Assembly (NCBI RefSeq): GCF_000026545.1
Contig: NC_011601.1
From: Escherichia coli O127:H6 str. E2348/69
GTDB lineage: Bacteria > Pseudomonadota > Gammaproteobacteria > Enterobacterales > Enterobacteriaceae
Length of the DNA: 64,000 nucleotides
Reading direction: 5' to 3' (one strand)
The position numbers and the translations under genes are program-made. Below are positions 1,795 to 39,706 of this stretch, in pieces. Under the pieces are notes generated by a model. The model made no database searches. It was not told the DNA's origin and saw only the letters and a list, made by a program, of their open reading frames with translations. Each line of letters opens with the position of its first letter. The first letter of the stretch is position 1.

Positions 1795-4698
<2,904 letters not shown>

Positions 4699-34941: not shown

Positions 34942-35927
34942 GCCAGCTTCCAGGGTTGTCACGGGAAACAAGAGAGAGTATCGCTATGTATCACCTTCGG
35001 GTTCCACAAACAGAAGAAGAATTAGAGCGTTACTATCAGTTTCGCTGGGAAATGTTGCGTAAGCCCCTGCATCAACCAAAAGGTTCGGAACGCGACGCGT
35101 GGGATGCGATGGCGCATCACCAGATGGTCGTCGACGAGCAGGGTAATCTGGTAGCGGTAGGCCGACTGTATATTAATGCCGACAATGAAGCGTCCATTCG
35201 CTTTATGGCCGTTCATCCCGACGTGCAGGACAAAGGGTTAGGCACGCTGATGGCGATGACCCTGGAGTCGGTGGCACGTCAGGAAGGCGTTAAGCGCGTG
35301 ACCTGTAGCGCCCGTGAAGACGCGGTGGAGTTTTTCGCCAAGCTGGGGTTTGTTAATCAGGGAGAAATCACCACGCCAACCACCACGCCGATTCGCCATT
35401 TTTTGATGATTAAACCCGTCGCCACTCTGGATGATATTCTTCATCGCGGCGACTGGTGCGCCCAGCTCCAGCAAGCGTGGTATGAACATATCCCGTTAAG
35501 CGAAAAAATGGGTGTGCGCATTCAGCAATATACCGGGCAAAAATTTATCACCACCATGCCGGAAACCGGCAATCAGAATCCGCATCACACGCTGTTTGCC
35601 GGGAGTTTATTCTCGCTGGCTACGCTCACCGGTTGGGGGCTTATCTGGCTGATGCTGCGCGAACGCCACCTCGGCGGAACGATTATTCTGGCGGATGCGC
35701 ATATCCGCTATAGCAAACCGATTAGCGGTAAACCCCATGCGGTAGCCGACCTTGGTGCCTTAAGTGGCGATCTCGACCGTCTGGCGCGCGGACGAAAAGC
35801 GCGGGTACAAATGCAGGTCGAAATCTTTGGCGACGAGACGCCGGGTGCAGTGTTTGAAGGCACGTATATCGTTCTGCCCGCGAAGCCATTTGGCCCGTAT
35901 GAAGAGGGCGGGAACGAAGAAGAGTAG
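34938..35927 (+). CDS. yiiD: GNAT acetyltransferase / hotdog thioesterase fusion protein YiiD
   Basis: 329-aa ORF; N-terminal GNAT-like region and C-terminal thioesterase-like region; synteny with dtd. Confidence 0.85.
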
Positions 35928-35990
35928 GGGCGTTTTACTTGACTGAAAAGGTTTTCAATCTGAAAACCTTTTCTGGGCCCTGGTCCGGAG

Positions 35991-36911
35991 TTACCTTCCC
36001 GCTCTCCAGGCAACATCCCGTAGCGCCGATCGCGCAGCCTCACTGATACCACCTAACTGAAAAAATCCGTGGATAACGCCAAGGTAGCGTTGGCAGGTGC
36101 ATTGCACTCCTTGCCCTGTCATGCGGTGATACAACGCTTCACCTTCATCGCAAAGTGGGTCGTATTCAGCGGTAATGATATGTACAGGTGGCAATCCATT
36201 GAAATCATTGCGCCAAATAGGGCTGGCTTCAGGATGCCTGCGTTCAATGCCTGGCAGGTACATCTCAAAGCCGCTCAGTAAAGTGTCGCGTGTGATGATG
36301 TAATCGTGACCATTGCGTATGTAGCTTTCGAAATGCGCAGTCGCATCAAGCATAGGATAAATTAAGATGAGTTGTGCTGGTTGCCACTCGCCAGCACGCT
36401 TCAATCGCAAAGCAGTTACCTGCGCCAGATGCCCTCCCGCACTGTCACCGGCAAGAGTTATTCGTTGTTTATCAACGCCGAGTCGTTCGGCGTGTTGCCG
36501 GACTAATTCTGCACCTCGTTGTGCATCATCATGGGCGGCGGGGAAAGTATGTTCCGGTGCCAGCCGATACTGGACGGCAATAATCCGACATTGCCCGTAA
36601 TAGGCTAACTGGCGCAGCTGGTTGTCGTGAGTTGCGAACCCGCCGCTAACAAAACAGCCACCGTAGTAATAAATTATCGTCGGGAGTAATGTCGGGGCAT
36701 TCAGCGGTGACACTATTCGTAAGGTCATCCCTTCAAGTTCGATAGTCTGAATATCTACCCGCGTTTCTGTCTCACCCGCAAGGACAGCGCTGGCGATATA
36801 GCCCTCTCTGCGCTGCGTAATACTTTGTTGGCGCGATGAGGGGCGACCCGCAGCGATAAACTCTTCGACTAACTCTGCAATTCCTTTTTCCAGTGCCATA
36901 GTAGAACTCAT
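35991..36911 (-). CDS. Alpha/beta-hydrolase fold-3 esterase/lipase (HSL family)
   Basis: Oxyanion-hole region YYYGGCFVSGG and nucleophile elbow GDSAGG; catalytic Asp/His candidates downstream. Start ambiguous (GTG at 36941, ATG at 36911 or 36899). Not in the K-12 yiiD-fdhE interval as I recall it. Confidence 0.75.
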   Translation of the reverse strand: MSSTMALEKGIAELVEEFIAAGRPSSRQQSITQRREGYIASAVLAGETETRVDIQTIELEGMTLRIVSPLNAPTLLPTIIYYYGGCFVSGGFATHDNQLRQLAYYGQCRIIAVQYRLAPEHTFPAAHDDAQRGAELVRQHAERLGVDKQRITLAGDSAGGHLAQVTALRLKRAGEWQPAQLILIYPMLDATAHFESYIRNGHDYIITRDTLLSGFEMYLPGIERRHPEASPIWRNDFNGLPPVHIITAEYDPLCDEGEALYHRMTGQGVQCTCQRYLGVIHGFFQLGGISEAARSALRDVAWRAGR

Positions 36912-37127
36912 TTTGCTGTATGAATGTACAGTTTTATACACCCGTTTTTACTGGATGGATACAGGGAAATTCACGGGCGTGAAAAATCTGGAAAGCGCCT
37001 CGCAAATGTAAAGACAAACCCGGCAGAGACGTGGTTTTGCTGGAGCACTATCAGTAAGCTAGTGGTTTCAAGGGTACGTCAATGACGTACAAAAAGGATT
37101 GTTACTCTAAGCCAATGGCGTATAATT

Positions 37128-37439
37128 ATGCTCTTCATCGAAACGGAAATTTTTACTGAAGATGTTCAAAAACTGCTGACCGACGATGAATTCAGTCGTT
37201 TTCAGTTTTTCCTGGCCTTGAATCCTGACTATGGTGAGGTAATACCTGAAACTGGTGGGTTAAGAAAGGTTCGATGGGTGTCAGGAGGAAAGGGGAAACG
37301 TGCTGGTGTCAGGGTTATTTACTTTCATCAGGTTAAACATTATGAGATCAGATTACTGCTTATTTATCGTAAGGGTATTAAAGATGATCTGTCTCCCCAG
37401 GAAAAAGCAATGCTCCGGTTGTTAAATACGAGGTGGTAA
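37128..37439 (+). CDS. Type II toxin, HigB-2-like (RelE/ParE superfamily)
   Basis: 103-aa ORF resembling Vibrio cholerae HigB-2 (…GDVIPETGGLRKVRWVSGGKGKRAGVRVIYF…); toxin encoded upstream of an HTH antitoxin with stop and start abutting (TAA-ATG). Confidence 0.8.
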   Translation: MLFIETEIFTEDVQKLLTDDEFSRFQFFLALNPDYGEVIPETGGLRKVRWVSGGKGKRAGVRVIYFHQVKHYEIRLLLIYRKGIKDDLSPQEKAMLRLLNTRW

Positions 37440-37730
37440 ATGGATAAGGCACTTTTTGAGCGGTTGACTCACAGCATGGCCCAGATGAATGAAATTATTG
37501 AAGGAACGCGACAGCCTTCGCGGACTTTTGAAGTTGATGCTATGAAAATCAAAGAAATACGCCGCGCTTCAGGGTTGTCACAATCTAAATTTGCCGATCT
37601 TATTTCTGTAAGCGTAGACACGTTGCGTAACTGGGAGCAGGGGCGACGTTCACCGACCGGGCCTGCAAAGGCTTTGCTGCGAGCGATTGCCAATGATCCG
37701 CAACATGTGCTGCAAGCACTTAACCGTTAG
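37440..37730 (+). CDS. Type II antitoxin, HigA-2-like HTH (XRE family)
   Basis: 96-aa ORF with XRE-type helix-turn-helix (IRRASGLSQSKFADLISVSVDTLRNWEQGRR) immediately after the toxin gene. Confidence 0.8.
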   Translation: MDKALFERLTHSMAQMNEIIEGTRQPSRTFEVDAMKIKEIRRASGLSQSKFADLISVSVDTLRNWEQGRRSPTGPAKALLRAIANDPQHVLQALNR

Positions 37731-38334
37731 AGGCATGGTTATGCCATACAGAAAGCACCAGCATTCAGAACTCCTGTGAAAGCGGCGTAGTGCCACCTGC
37801 TCAGGAGTTTTGCTATGACCCGTAATCGTGCTGACCGTTGCCACCCTATGATGCGATTAAAAAAACTCATCGTCGCGCCGATGATTGACGTCAATGCTAT
37901 CGGATGATGTCAGGGGTGTTCCGGAAGGAATTCCTTGTTTCCCGAACTGTTACCAACAAAATTATAACGATGAGCAAGTTAAGACCGGTTGGTAGCAGTA
38001 CTGACCGGTCTGTGATGGATGATTAATTTCACCTTAAATCCGGGTGCTGTTAGGATGCTGACATTTTTCGGCTACACCATTCAGATTATGCAATTAAAGA
38101 TCCAATCAAAAAATAAACATCCCTGTATATAATATATTCATAGCACCTATAATTCATTTTGGGCGATAACTAAACCATTTTTGAGTAACAAATGAAACAA
38201 CTGCAACGGACTTATTATTTCTGGAAAACGTCTCGCAAAAACAAAACAATATGAAAAAATCCGCTTTCGTTAATTAACTTTCCGGCGTAATTTTCGCACA
38301 TACATTAATGAGTAATATATGTAAGGTGGTGGTA

Positions 38335-38553
38335 ATGGCGATGAATACGGTTTTTCTTCATTTATCAGAAGAGGCAATTAAACGGCTGAACAAGCTTCGG
38401 GGATGGCGTAAGGTTTCGCGCTCTGCAATTTTACGCGAAGCGGTAGAGCAATATCTGGAGCGGCAGCAATTTCCGGTGCGTAAGGCAAAAGGCGGCAGGC
38501 AAAGGGACGAGGCAGTTGGTGTTGAAGAACTATGTAAGCAGCATAAGGAATGA
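38335..38553 (+). CDS. Ribbon-helix-helix (CopG-like) small protein, YiiE/YiiF family
   Basis: 72 aa from the ATG at 38335 (MAMNTVFLHLSEEAIKRLNKLRGWRKVSRSAILREAVEQYL...), RHH signature; which of the two K-12 paralogs (yiiE or yiiF) it corresponds to is uncertain. Confidence 0.7.
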   Translation: MAMNTVFLHLSEEAIKRLNKLRGWRKVSRSAILREAVEQYLERQQFPVRKAKGGRQRDEAVGVEELCKQHKE

Positions 38554-38776
38554 CAAAAAGATTTTTTCATTCTTGAATATAAAAACAAAAAACCAGATGA
38601 CCTTATTCTGGTATTAATACAAGGTTGTTTTACTTGAACTTATAATAACTGCAACTGTTACATCATATCTGGAAAACGCCTCGCGAAATACGAGAGATTT
38701 TGCGGGAATAGCAGGTGTCGTCACACCCTATGAGCTGTAATCCGGGCGACCAGCGCCACCCGGAAAACGTCAGAGA

Positions 38777-39706
38777 TTACTCCCCTTCACCCGGAAACAG
38801 GAACGGGTTAATGGAACTACGGGCATAGCCTTCTTGCTCCATTCGCGCGTCCAGTACCAGAGAGGCGAGGTCATCTGCCACGGCTTCAACTTTCGGTTCT
38901 TTTTCCTGATAAAGAATCTTCAGGTAAGTGCCGCAGTCATCGCAGCTTTCGGCTTTAATCGCGGCCTGTTCGTCATCCAGCGACCAGTAATGCAGTTTGC
39001 CGCTCTGTTCACAGTTGCTGCATTTTACGCGCACTACGTGCCATTCAGTTTCACACAGGTTGCAGCGCAGGTAACGCAGACCCTGAGTGGTGCCAATTTG
39101 CACCATGCTGGACACCGGCATAGAGCCACATACCGGGCAATATTGACGTTGTTCGCCGTATTCAGCGCGGGCTTTGCCGGGGATCAGATTAGCCATCTGC
39201 GCCCAGTAGAGCGACAGCGCAGCCCAGATAAACGGCGCTTTATCGCTGCTGACGGACGAGAAATCAGAGGCAAACAGCGCGCTGGCCATATCTTCCAGCT
39301 CCTGAGTCGATGCCTTCTCCAGATTCTCAATCACTGCCAGCGCCGGGCCGCTCATTTCAGGTTTCAGCTCAGCAATTAGCGCCATCAGCAGCTTTTGCCA
39401 GTGCTTATCACGCGGCAGAACGTGAATATCCAGCGGGGGCTTGCCCTGTGCGCTGGCTTCTTTAATGCGCGCGGTCAGATCCATCTCCAGCGGATGGTCG
39501 TACAGCACCACTTCCTGGGCGTGGGCGATAAGCGCAGCAAAGCGCAGGTAATCACCCAGCGGATTATTTTCTGCCAGCTCGCGCAGACGCTCGGCGCGGC
39601 GGTTGTATAAATTCTTGAGCCGAGGGAACAATAACGGCGGAATCATATCCGCCGTACGTTTCTCGCTCGAACCCAGCTCATCTTGCGGGATTATGCGAAT
39701 ACTCAT
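38777..39706 (-). CDS. fdhE: Formate dehydrogenase formation protein FdhE
   Basis: 309-aa ORF with four CxxC pairs ([27 protein letters not shown]). Confidence 0.93.

Follow-up and report, generated by a model that had tools for sequence, protein, structure and literature searches.

A HigBA-2-type toxin–antitoxin operon and a divergent esterase as a probable long-standing resident of the fabY–fdhE interval in Escherichia coli, counterpart of Salmonella STM4032-sehCD

The DNA analysed here, a window of 64,000 nucleotides, matches E. coli E2348/69 with 100% identity. Its interval between fabY (yiiD) and fdhE holds an esterase gene on the minus strand, a toxin gene and an antitoxin gene on the plus strand, and then yiiE. 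The features of this region are as follows, in positions of the window.

35991–36899, minus strand: HSL-family (family IV) alpha/beta-hydrolase esterase, 302 aa (RefSeq CDS, NCBIfam HSL models, PDB)
36988–37006, plus strand: 19-nt box CTGGAAAGCGCCTCGCAAA, copy 1, ~140 nt upstream of the toxin ATG
37074–37090, no strand: O1, perfect 8-1-8 palindrome GTACGTCA-A-TGACGTAC, putative antitoxin operator (conserved in 13/13 upstream regions)
37107–37123, no strand: O2, imperfect palindrome CTAAGCCA-A-TGGCGTAT, putative operator (read from the sequence)
37128–37439, plus strand: toxin, 103 aa, HigB-2/SehC type, RelE fold (PDB HigB-2, SehC identity)
37440–37730, plus strand: antitoxin, 96 aa, HigA-2/SehD/NadS-family type (NCBIfam NadS, PDB HigA-2, SehD)
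37731–38334, no strand: AT-rich non-coding spacer, GC 0.40 (no annotated feature)
38221–38239, plus strand: 19-nt box, copy 2, 114 nt upstream of the yiiE ATG
38335–38553, plus strand: yiiE, small ribbon-helix-helix (CopG-family) gene (RefSeq; weak RHH/RelB-like matches only)
38669–38687, plus strand: 19-nt box, copy 3, at the position that precedes yiiF in K-12

The open reading frames of the esterase, toxin and antitoxin lie where an earlier note on this DNA had placed them (ORF list, RefSeq), and profile and PDB matches bear out the identities proposed there: an HSL-family esterase, a HigB-2-like toxin and an HTH antitoxin. The toxin-first order with abutting stop and start, also claimed in the note, is evident from the ORF coordinates and the junction (..TGG TAA ATG GAT..), and a GAGG Shine-Dalgarno-like motif sits within the 3′ end of the toxin gene. 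The stretch beyond the antitoxin, described as 570 bp of AT-rich, non-coding DNA, does have the low GC content and no annotated gene, but it is ~604 bp long, with yiiE starting at 38335 rather than at 38308 as had been implied; nor is it featureless, since a conserved copy of the 19-nt box lies within it, in the region upstream of yiiE. B2 strains have a further 394-bp segment, carrying parts of two small ORFs, which this spacer is without (junction 37868/37871). yiiE marks the right-hand border of the block and does not belong to the toxin–antitoxin (TA) pair. yiiF is missing from E2348/69, where homology to K-12 ends straight after copy 3 of the box, at 38688. An Rfam scan of 35800–38900 returned nothing.

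The open frame of the esterase runs to a GTG at 36941 (35991–36941, minus strand), the RefSeq start being at 36899. The protein matches PDB esterases (best E 5e-51) and NCBIfam HSL models, all of the latter below their equivalog cut-offs (LipP1, 237.6 bits against 350; Aes, 137.8 against 389; chloramphenicol hydrolase, 162 against 500). It resembles family IV, or HSL-like, esterases such as E. coli Aes, PestE (2YH2) and EST2 in its length of ~300 aa, its GDSAG elbow and its Ser-Asp-His triad motifs, present here as the GDSAG nucleophile, DPLCDE (DPLxDE) and HGF. It differs from them at the oxyanion hole, where HGG(C/G) is the rule and HGG(G) would be looked for: both the B1 and the B2 alleles of E. 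coli read YYYGGCF, whereas HGGCF was found in 14/14 orthologues examined from other genera. The E. coli motif, YGGC, thus keeps the two glycines, the histidine alone having been replaced.

Residues 2–99 of the toxin align to V. cholerae HigB-2 chains (phmmer against PDB, E 1e-19 to 1.5e-18), and in this alignment toxin residues R49, R62, Y80 and K82 correspond to VcHigB2 R51, R64, Y82 and K84, alanine substitution of which lowered activity 170- to 3000-fold (PMC5416850). All four are invariant in an alignment of 11 orthologues. The match to Pfam PF06296 was weak (i-Evalue 0.0062, 17.2 bits, residues 43–101 only), several close orthologues carry a precomputed match to the same family, and phrog_5869 was matched at E 6e-27. 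Judged from these alignments, the toxin is probably a ribosome-dependent mRNA endonuclease. Calls of this kind can fail within the HigB-like superfamily, since Salmonella SehA, a predicted HigB-like RNase, proved to have no RNase activity and instead inhibits RNase III (PMC12817084). That the E. coli toxin likewise acts by binding a cellular protein, with no RNase activity of its own, is nevertheless extremely improbable: SehA belongs to a different family (PF09907) and is itself without the canonical active-site residues, while the E. coli toxin aligns over its whole length to a demonstrated mRNase and keeps all four catalytic residues. A literature search found no experiment on the E. coli toxin or antitoxin proteins, and querying by RefSeq protein accessions and presumed locus tags gave nothing relevant.

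In the antitoxin, a C-terminal HTH of XRE type is preceded by an N-terminal segment of ~26–30 aa. Positions 27–89 align to PDB HigA-2 (E 1.8e-8 with the single sequence, 4.7e-12 with a profile), and phrog_2104 was matched at E 8e-26. The NCBIfam model NF041265 (NadS) was matched over residues 5–89 at 60.7 bits, against a curated cut-off of 60 (E 1.2e-16), and RefSeq names the gene nadS; a literature search on the meaning of ‘NadS’ recovered NAD-synthetase papers only, none explaining the name. K-12 has a nadS-annotated gene elsewhere in its genome. The N-terminal extension is highly conserved among orthologues, and searches with the N-terminus alone against PDB and with a profile detected no similarity to VcHigA2 or any PDB chain.

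The 55 nt that precede the toxin ATG contain two related palindromes, both conserved across 13 loci. The centre of O2 is 33 bp from that of O1, its end is 4 nt before the toxin ATG, and its GCCAATGGCGTA block is nearly invariant in the upstream alignment of the 13 loci. At the Salmonella sehCD promoter, two palindromes bound by SehD and autorepression of sehCD by SehD have been described (PMC3868539, retracted).

Further upstream, the 19-nt box CTGGAAARCGYCTCGCRAA sits at a fixed distance from the TA operon in many genera. Its three copies in the window compare with 0.02 expected by chance; across 13 loci, drawn from several genera, the GG and TCGCA positions do not vary, and the box is found in related loci too. 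On a reading rated low below, the box would serve as a promoter or regulator site shared by the TA operon and the small RHH genes yiiE and yiiF, coordinating these DNA-binding modules and perhaps the divergently transcribed esterase with them. A reading as a sigma-54 promoter is kept at low probability: the spacing TGG-N8-TCGCA fits −24/−12, but there are three consensus mismatches. yiiE, yiiF and STM4032/4033 are absent from the lists of K-12 RpoN genomic SELEX and K-12 sigma-54 ChIP-seq, and from those of Salmonella sigma-54 ChIP-chip, supplements included. A sigma-70 match (TTGTTA-16-TATAAT) ending 2 nt before the toxin ATG was set aside, because the count of such matches in the region is not above chance and the −10 hexamer is unconserved in other genera. 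It is quite unlikely that the pair, rather than being a selfish addiction module, is a domesticated regulatory unit tied to a control element shared through the 19-nt box and retained since before the enteric genera diverged.

The pair and the esterase are each present in 2636 of 5426 complete E. coli genomes (48.6%), in single copy and on the chromosome, and in 2448 E. coli genomes the identity of the TA pair reaches 99% or more. Carriers include EPEC, UPEC/ST131, Nissle, O104:H4 and B1 strains. The interval between yiiD and fdhE is plastic, with ISEc53 and a ClbS-like gene in Nissle and extra genes in other strains. All three genes are missing from K-12-type genomes, and O157-type strains hold a decayed remnant of the antitoxin 3′ end (the last ~25 nt) beside a different two-gene cassette, whose proteins gave no match in Pfam, NCBIfam, PADLOC and PHROG scans. 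K-12 represents a further deletion of this cassette. The remnant and the deletion, together with synteny across genera and the lack of mobility genes, indicate that the K-12 state is derived.

The order fabY–esterase–toxin–antitoxin–fdhE, with unchanged gene orientation, is also found in Salmonella, Citrobacter, Enterobacter, Kluyvera, Pseudocitrobacter and Klebsiella spallanzanii, thus in at least six other genera, and the upstream regulatory motifs are conserved across the syntenic genera. Leclercia and Lelliottia have the TA pair without the esterase, which is a neighbour gene separable from the pair in some genera. Synonymous sites are saturated (pS ~0.76, against 0.74 in fabY next to the block). 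The toxin has a pN of 0.17 (pN/pS about 0.22) and the antitoxin one of 0.08, the low pN/pS indicating purifying selection. Distances of the cassette and of its flanks across genera correlate at a Pearson coefficient of ~0.7 and a Spearman coefficient of ~0.3; as the distances between genera are star-like, the case for vertical descent rests mainly on synteny. Within Enterobacteriaceae, the block has long resided in the fabY–fdhE interval of the chromosome and is not a fresh insertion.

These data bear directly on the earlier note, which had regarded the three genes as an accessory insertion lacking from K-12 and the TA pair as a marker or stabiliser of acquired DNA. Comparison of the yiiD–fdhE intervals upholds the absence from K-12, and the block is accessory in the pan-genome sense, the pair being not universal in E. 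coli; insertion of acquired DNA finds no support in view of the synteny across genera, K-12 itself showing the derived state. The proposal that the block is a horizontally acquired islet of some E. coli, which the pair stabilises or defends, could draw on its absence from K-12 and O157 and from about half of the genomes, on the GC content of the toxin gene (0.41, against 0.55 in the flanks), on the occurrence of the TA family in phages and its abundance on plasmids (893 records), on the plasticity of the interval seen in Nissle, and on the possible-islet framing of a survey of an adherent-invasive E. coli (AIEC) strain (PMC7232551). It is nonetheless decidedly improbable, and largely refuted by the synteny: the same three-gene layout, with conserved regulatory motifs, lies between the same flanks in the other genera; no integrase, transposase, tRNA or flanking direct repeat was annotated or found in the E2348/69 block; synonymous divergence is saturated as it is in fabY; strains without the pair retain a remnant of its antitoxin gene; and the only ‘plasmid’ records with the E. 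coli allele, three in number and 1.0–4.9 Mb in size, look chromosomal.

Type II toxin–antitoxin systems can defend against phage, and homologous pairs occur in phage genomes, as seen in the PHROG matches. An abortive-infection function for the E. coli pair is even so very improbable: in PADLOC-DB 2.0 the toxin had 0 matches and the antitoxin generic HTH matches only, no defence genes adjoin the block, and long vertical retention in a housekeeping setting is not what a typical defence island shows.

The reading favoured here, at a probability of roughly 0.8, is that the block is the E. coli counterpart of Salmonella STM4032-sehCD, that is, an esterase gene divergent from a HigBA-2-type TA operon, an old resident of the fabY–fdhE interval that about half of E. 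coli have kept. Under this reading, the RelE-fold toxin of 103 aa would cleave mRNA in a ribosome-dependent manner by means of R49, R62, Y80 and K82, and the 96-aa antitoxin would neutralise it through its N-terminal ~30 residues. A dimer of the antitoxin HTH is predicted to repress the operon by binding O1 and O2, just upstream of the toxin gene, while the abutting stop and start, together with the Shine-Dalgarno-like motif inside the toxin gene, may couple translation of the two proteins; these steps are proposed from homology. The lineages leading to O157 and K-12 would have replaced the block with another cassette, most of which K-12 then deleted.

The direction of change is thereby corrected: at the fabY–fdhE locus it is K-12 that is the odd one out, and the label ‘insertion’ for the block in pathogens, as in surveys of pathogen-associated TA systems, is misleading. 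The locus opens no new kind of biology. It is a clean natural case of a chromosomal TA pair that purifying selection has maintained from before the divergence of the enteric genera, and as such bears on the debate over whether chromosomal TA systems are selfish or useful. The E. coli pair is now linked with two relatives that have been characterised, SehCD of Salmonella and HigBA-2 of V. cholerae, so that its function becomes directly predictable and testable.

The locus is already described, as STM4032-sehCD in Salmonella and as TA27 (relE-1/yiaG-1) in AIEC and UPEC strains of E. coli. The Salmonella block, made up of the esterase gene STM4032 and of sehCD (STM4032.2N–STM4033; SL3979–SL3980), has the same fabY–fdhE position, gene order and orientation and likewise two conserved palindromes upstream of the toxin gene, and SehC and SehD, at 103 and 96 aa, are equal in length to the E. 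coli toxin and antitoxin. Identity between the two species is 70% for the toxin, 85% for the antitoxin and 73% for the esterase. S. enterica subsp. enterica differs in having the unrelated sehAB between fabY and the esterase, which E. coli is without, and E. coli differs in having yiiE, and often yiiF too, between the antitoxin and fdhE. Two Salmonella loci (L096 and L097) read fabY, sehB, sehA, esterase, 103-aa toxin, 96-aa antitoxin and fdhE, matching the published layout. SehAB was considered as the counterpart and rejected: the SehA residues named in PMC12817084 misfit the E. coli toxin family, and 9/10 of them are carried by the PF09907 neighbour in L097. Identity between SehA and SehC is only 11.6% (De la Cruz et al.). 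The published mass of SehC, 12,326 Da, is close to the 12,198–12,370 Da of the Salmonella homologues, though inexact and not decisive. The true Salmonella counterpart of the E. coli pair is SehCD.

In S. Typhimurium, SehCD behaved as a genuine TA pair, the toxicity of SehC being rescued by its antitoxin SehD (PMC4366850). SehC was reported not to be strongly toxic in E. coli, and deletion of sehD to be viable and without a growth phenotype (PMC3868539, retracted). One large Salmonella lineage has a frameshifted antitoxin beside an intact toxin, which argues for weak or conditional toxicity. Together with the stronger conservation of the antitoxin than of the toxin, these observations would suit a decaying or domesticated remnant whose toxin no longer inhibits growth and whose antitoxin persists chiefly for its role in transcription control. 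Such a state is unlikely for the E. coli pair, given a toxin ORF that is intact in essentially all 2636 carriers, its low pN/pS, the invariance of its four catalytic residues across genera and the toxicity of SehC, with its neutralisation by SehD, reported in S. Typhimurium.

The related pair of V. cholerae, HigB-2/HigA-2 (PDB 5JA8, 5JA9, 5JAA, 5J9I), shares with the E. coli pair a toxin-first operon, a toxin alignable over 98/103 residues, and an antitoxin in which ~30 additional N-terminal residues precede a C-terminal HTH of XRE type. VcHigB2 is a demonstrated ribosome-dependent mRNase, and growth arrest and antitoxin rescue have been reported for VcHigBA2 (PMC5416850); the N-terminal segment of HigA-2 is disordered, folds on the toxin and neutralises it. 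The two systems differ in setting: HigBA-2 sits in a superintegron cassette, whereas the E. coli pair occupies a conserved housekeeping interval and has no cassette signatures.

Within E. coli, the survey of AIEC NRG857c placed relE-1/yiaG-1 (TA27) between yiiD and fdhE, shared with UPEC CFT073 and missing from K-12 and HS along with bordering genes (PMC7232551); judged by this description, it is the same locus. There it was a catalogue entry only, pathogen-associated and a possible islet; the present survey recovers the pair from 48.6% of complete E. coli genomes, B1 strains among them, and its synteny extends across genera. K-12 HigBA (YgjN/YgjM), Proteus Rts1 HigBA and Salmonella SehAB resemble the pair as toxin-first type II operons with an HTH antitoxin, but they differ from it in having HigB toxins of the PF09907/PF05015 type and antitoxins of ~140–148 aa.

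The esterase and two abutting small ORFs lie between fabY and fdhE at the coordinates, and in the arrangement, that the earlier note described, as the ORFs and the RefSeq layout confirm; its gene identities (esterase, HigB-2-like toxin, HTH antitoxin) were also right, given homology to HSL models, HigB-2 and HigA-2. E2348/69 matched the 64-kb window at 100% identity. The toxin TAA directly abuts the antitoxin ATG, and a GAGG motif sits inside the toxin ORF just 5′ of the antitoxin start.

Features of the fabY–fdhE interval (window positions)
Left of fabY: yihX, yihY, dtd
End at 35927: fabY (yiiD)
35991–36899, minus: esterase (RefSeq; open frame reaches 36941)
36988–37006, plus: conserved island, box CTGGAAAGCGCCTCGCAAA (copy 1), 5′ of the toxin-antitoxin operon
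37074–37090: conserved island, perfect palindrome GTACGTCA-A-TGACGTAC (O1)
37107–37123: imperfect palindrome CTAAGCCA-A-TGGCGTAT (O2), related to O1, centred 33 bp downstream of it
37128–37439: toxin, 103-aa ORF
37440–37730: antitoxin, 96-aa ORF
Between antitoxin and yiiE: gap of ~600 bp, no annotated gene
38221–38239, plus: box copy 2, 5′ of yiiE
38335–38553: yiiE
38669–38687, plus: box copy 3, yiiF position
38777–39706, minus: fdhE, then fdoI, fdoH

Among 5426 complete E. coli genomes, 2635 carried the pair with at least 80% query coverage (any match: 2636), 2448 at ≥99% identity, and 2636 carried the esterase. The pair is single-copy and chromosomal in carriers, which include E2348/69, Nissle 1917, UM146, ST131, O104:H4 and O111:H8, strains that belong to phylogroups B2 and B1. 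Where the block is missing, the fabY–yiiE slot holds either an unrelated two-gene cassette, full length in 1062/5426 genomes (the O157:H7 state), or a K-12-type stub, the retained first 475 bp of that cassette alone (3527–4000 in the K-12-type locus L002), after which homology to the window restarts at 37938. With about half of the genomes carrying the pair and the remainder in other states, the block varies among E. coli strains, as the earlier note supposed.

That it is an insertion, as the same note proposed, proved wrong. Synteny, read from homologues fetched together with their genomic context, showed the layout dtd-fabY-esterase(−)-toxin-antitoxin-fdhE(−) also in Enterobacter, several Citrobacter species, Pseudocitrobacter, Kluyvera, Klebsiella spallanzanii and Salmonella; in Leclercia, Lelliottia and some Enterobacter the pair is there but the esterase is not. 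In the syntenic set, identity to E. coli was 90–97% for flanking proteins, 73–81% for the esterase, 68–76% for the toxin and 83–88% for the antitoxin. Against Salmonella, pS for toxin and antitoxin was ~0.76, saturated like that of fabY (0.74), with few non-synonymous differences (pN 0.17 for toxin, 0.08 for antitoxin): the pair is under purifying selection. Beyond the Enterobacteriaceae (Xenorhabdus, Legionella, Pseudomonas and others), versions of the pair at 50–67% identity sit in unrelated contexts, and plasmids commonly carry homologues. The E2348/69 block is free of integrase, transposase and tRNA genes and has no repeats at its flanks. Moreover, at the right edge of the alternative cassette in O157-type strains the antitoxin's last ~25 nt survive in decayed form (3501–3530 in L004, from strain 131, against window 37705–37735; 1-nt deletion, stop codon changed to GAG), which implies that the pair preceded the cassette there. 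The simplest history is that the block is ancestral, that one E. coli lineage swapped it for the other cassette, and that K-12 later lost most of that cassette. The cassette encodes proteins of 297 and 304 aa (L004 1620–3434), neither matching anything in Pfam, NCBIfam, PADLOC or PHROGs, and may repay closer study.

On allele comparison, the block of E2348/69 itself resembles a recombination mosaic. Esterase identity is 99.6–99.8% to B2 strains and ~97.5% to B1 strains (35991–38334 against H31–H37, L099 and L005), the pair together with the spacer downstream of it matches B1 strains O104:H4 and O111:H8 exactly, and, like B1 strains, E2348/69 is without a 394-bp segment typical of B2 strains (junction 37868/37871). 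B2 strains EV36, AH21C082 and Nissle have two small ORFs between antitoxin and yiiE (L005 4388–4600 and 4662–4940), of 70 aa (matching phrog_4499) and 92 aa (without match), and Nissle 1917 has a ClbS/DfsB-family four-helix-bundle gene and an ISEc53 transposase inserted in the esterase–toxin gap (L003 1715–3472). Plasticity extends to the right half of the interval, since E2348/69 is without yiiF, K-12 homology stopping right after box 3 (window 38688–38714; L002 4723–5323), and in AH21C082 two extra minus-strand genes, one for a hypothetical and one for a DUF6708 protein, separate the yiiE-like gene from the yiiF-like gene (L006 6740–8353).

The esterase matched hormone-sensitive-lipase-type (family IV) models, falling below every curated equivalog cut-off, and a large number of solved esterases (best E 5e-51), and contains the motifs GDSAG, DPLCDE and HGF. 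E. coli alleles, from B1 and B2 strains alike, read YYYGGCF (window 36650–36680; residues ~75–83) where the 14 other-genus orthologues examined have HGGCF; in E. coli, tyrosine therefore takes the place of the histidine in the HSL-family HGG oxyanion-hole motif.

Upstream of the toxin gene, an alignment of 175 nt from 13 loci showed three conserved islands amid otherwise variable sequence. Of these, the two palindromes are the obvious candidate operators for the antitoxin. More surprising is the 19-nt box CTGGAAARCGYCTCGCRAA, of which the window contains three copies (0.02 copies expected by chance), always on the plus strand and only within the fabY–fdhE interval, copy 3 sitting where K-12 has yiiF downstream. 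The GG and TCGCA positions of copy 1 are invariant across the 13 loci, from several genera. The GG/GC spacing of the box fits a sigma-54 −24/−12 promoter element; yiiE, yiiF and the toxin-antitoxin genes are not listed in the K-12 and Salmonella sigma-54 binding studies checked. This repeated, conserved box might merit closer study.

Solved chains of V. cholerae HigB-2 aligned to toxin residues 2–99 (E 1e-19); the Pfam RelE model PF06296 matched weakly (E 0.006). Alanine substitution of VcHigB2 R51, R64, Y82 or K84 lowers activity 170- to 3000-fold (PMC5416850), and their aligned counterparts, R49, R62, Y80 and K82, are invariant among 11 enterobacterial orthologues. The toxin would thus be a ribosome-dependent mRNA endonuclease, neutralised by the antitoxin's N-terminal extension, with the operon presumably autorepressed via O1 and O2. 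What the analysis itself shows is HigB-2/HigA-2 homology, an operon arrangement, conservation of the catalytic residues and of both palindromes, purifying selection and orthology to Salmonella sehCD.

SehCD is the E. coli pair's positional orthologue in Salmonella (identity 70% for toxin, 85% for antitoxin). In S. enterica loci L096/L097 the order is fabY, a 148-aa HTH protein and 103-aa PF09907 toxin (minus), esterase, the pair (103 and 96 aa) and fdhE. The arrangement published for sehAB, STM4032 and sehCD (PMC3868539, marked retracted) is identical, and the PF09907 protein has 9/10 SehA residues named in PMC12817084. The locus is already known, from the SehCD papers, RefSeq annotation and a survey of AIEC toxin-antitoxins, which lists ‘relE-1/yiaG-1 (TA27)’ between conserved yiiD and fdhE, common to CFT073 and missing, bordering genes too, from K-12 and HS (PMC7232551). 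In S. enterica subsp. enterica the second, unrelated HigBA-type pair (sehB, sehA) fills the fabY–esterase interval (L096/L097 4014–4768), so two toxin-first operons flank the esterase.

One caveat is SehA, the HigB-like neighbour, which is not an RNase (PMC12817084). Accounts of SehC toxicity also conflict: in S. Typhimurium the antitoxin rescues toxicity (PMC4366850), whereas the retracted PMC3868539 reported weak toxicity in E. coli and no growth or virulence phenotype, along with SehD autorepression and two promoter palindromes. Moreover, one widespread Salmonella lineage (toxin P0110, on 641 contigs; L007, L008, L094, L095, 5313–5600) has an intact toxin with catalytic residues kept beside an antitoxin frameshifted after ~codon 10 (restart ORF 81–84 aa) and a 25% esterase remnant; in other Salmonella (L092, L097) the antitoxin is full length, at 96 aa. 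We put the explanation of an ancestral, autorepressed, mRNA-cleaving pair, its identity, origin and mechanism taken jointly, at roughly 80%.

Toxin and antitoxin each matched PHROG families of unknown function, and neither had a specific PADLOC match. At 60.7 bits the antitoxin narrowly cleared the NadS cut-off of NCBIfam, set at 60. Its HTH domain matches HigA-2 structures (E 2e-8; 4.7e-12 with a profile), and its first ~26–30 residues, strongly conserved among orthologues, have no detectable similarity to VcHigA2 or PDB chains. From the HTH match and this conserved N-terminus, the antitoxin has the same architecture as HigA-2, an N-terminal extension followed by an HTH domain.
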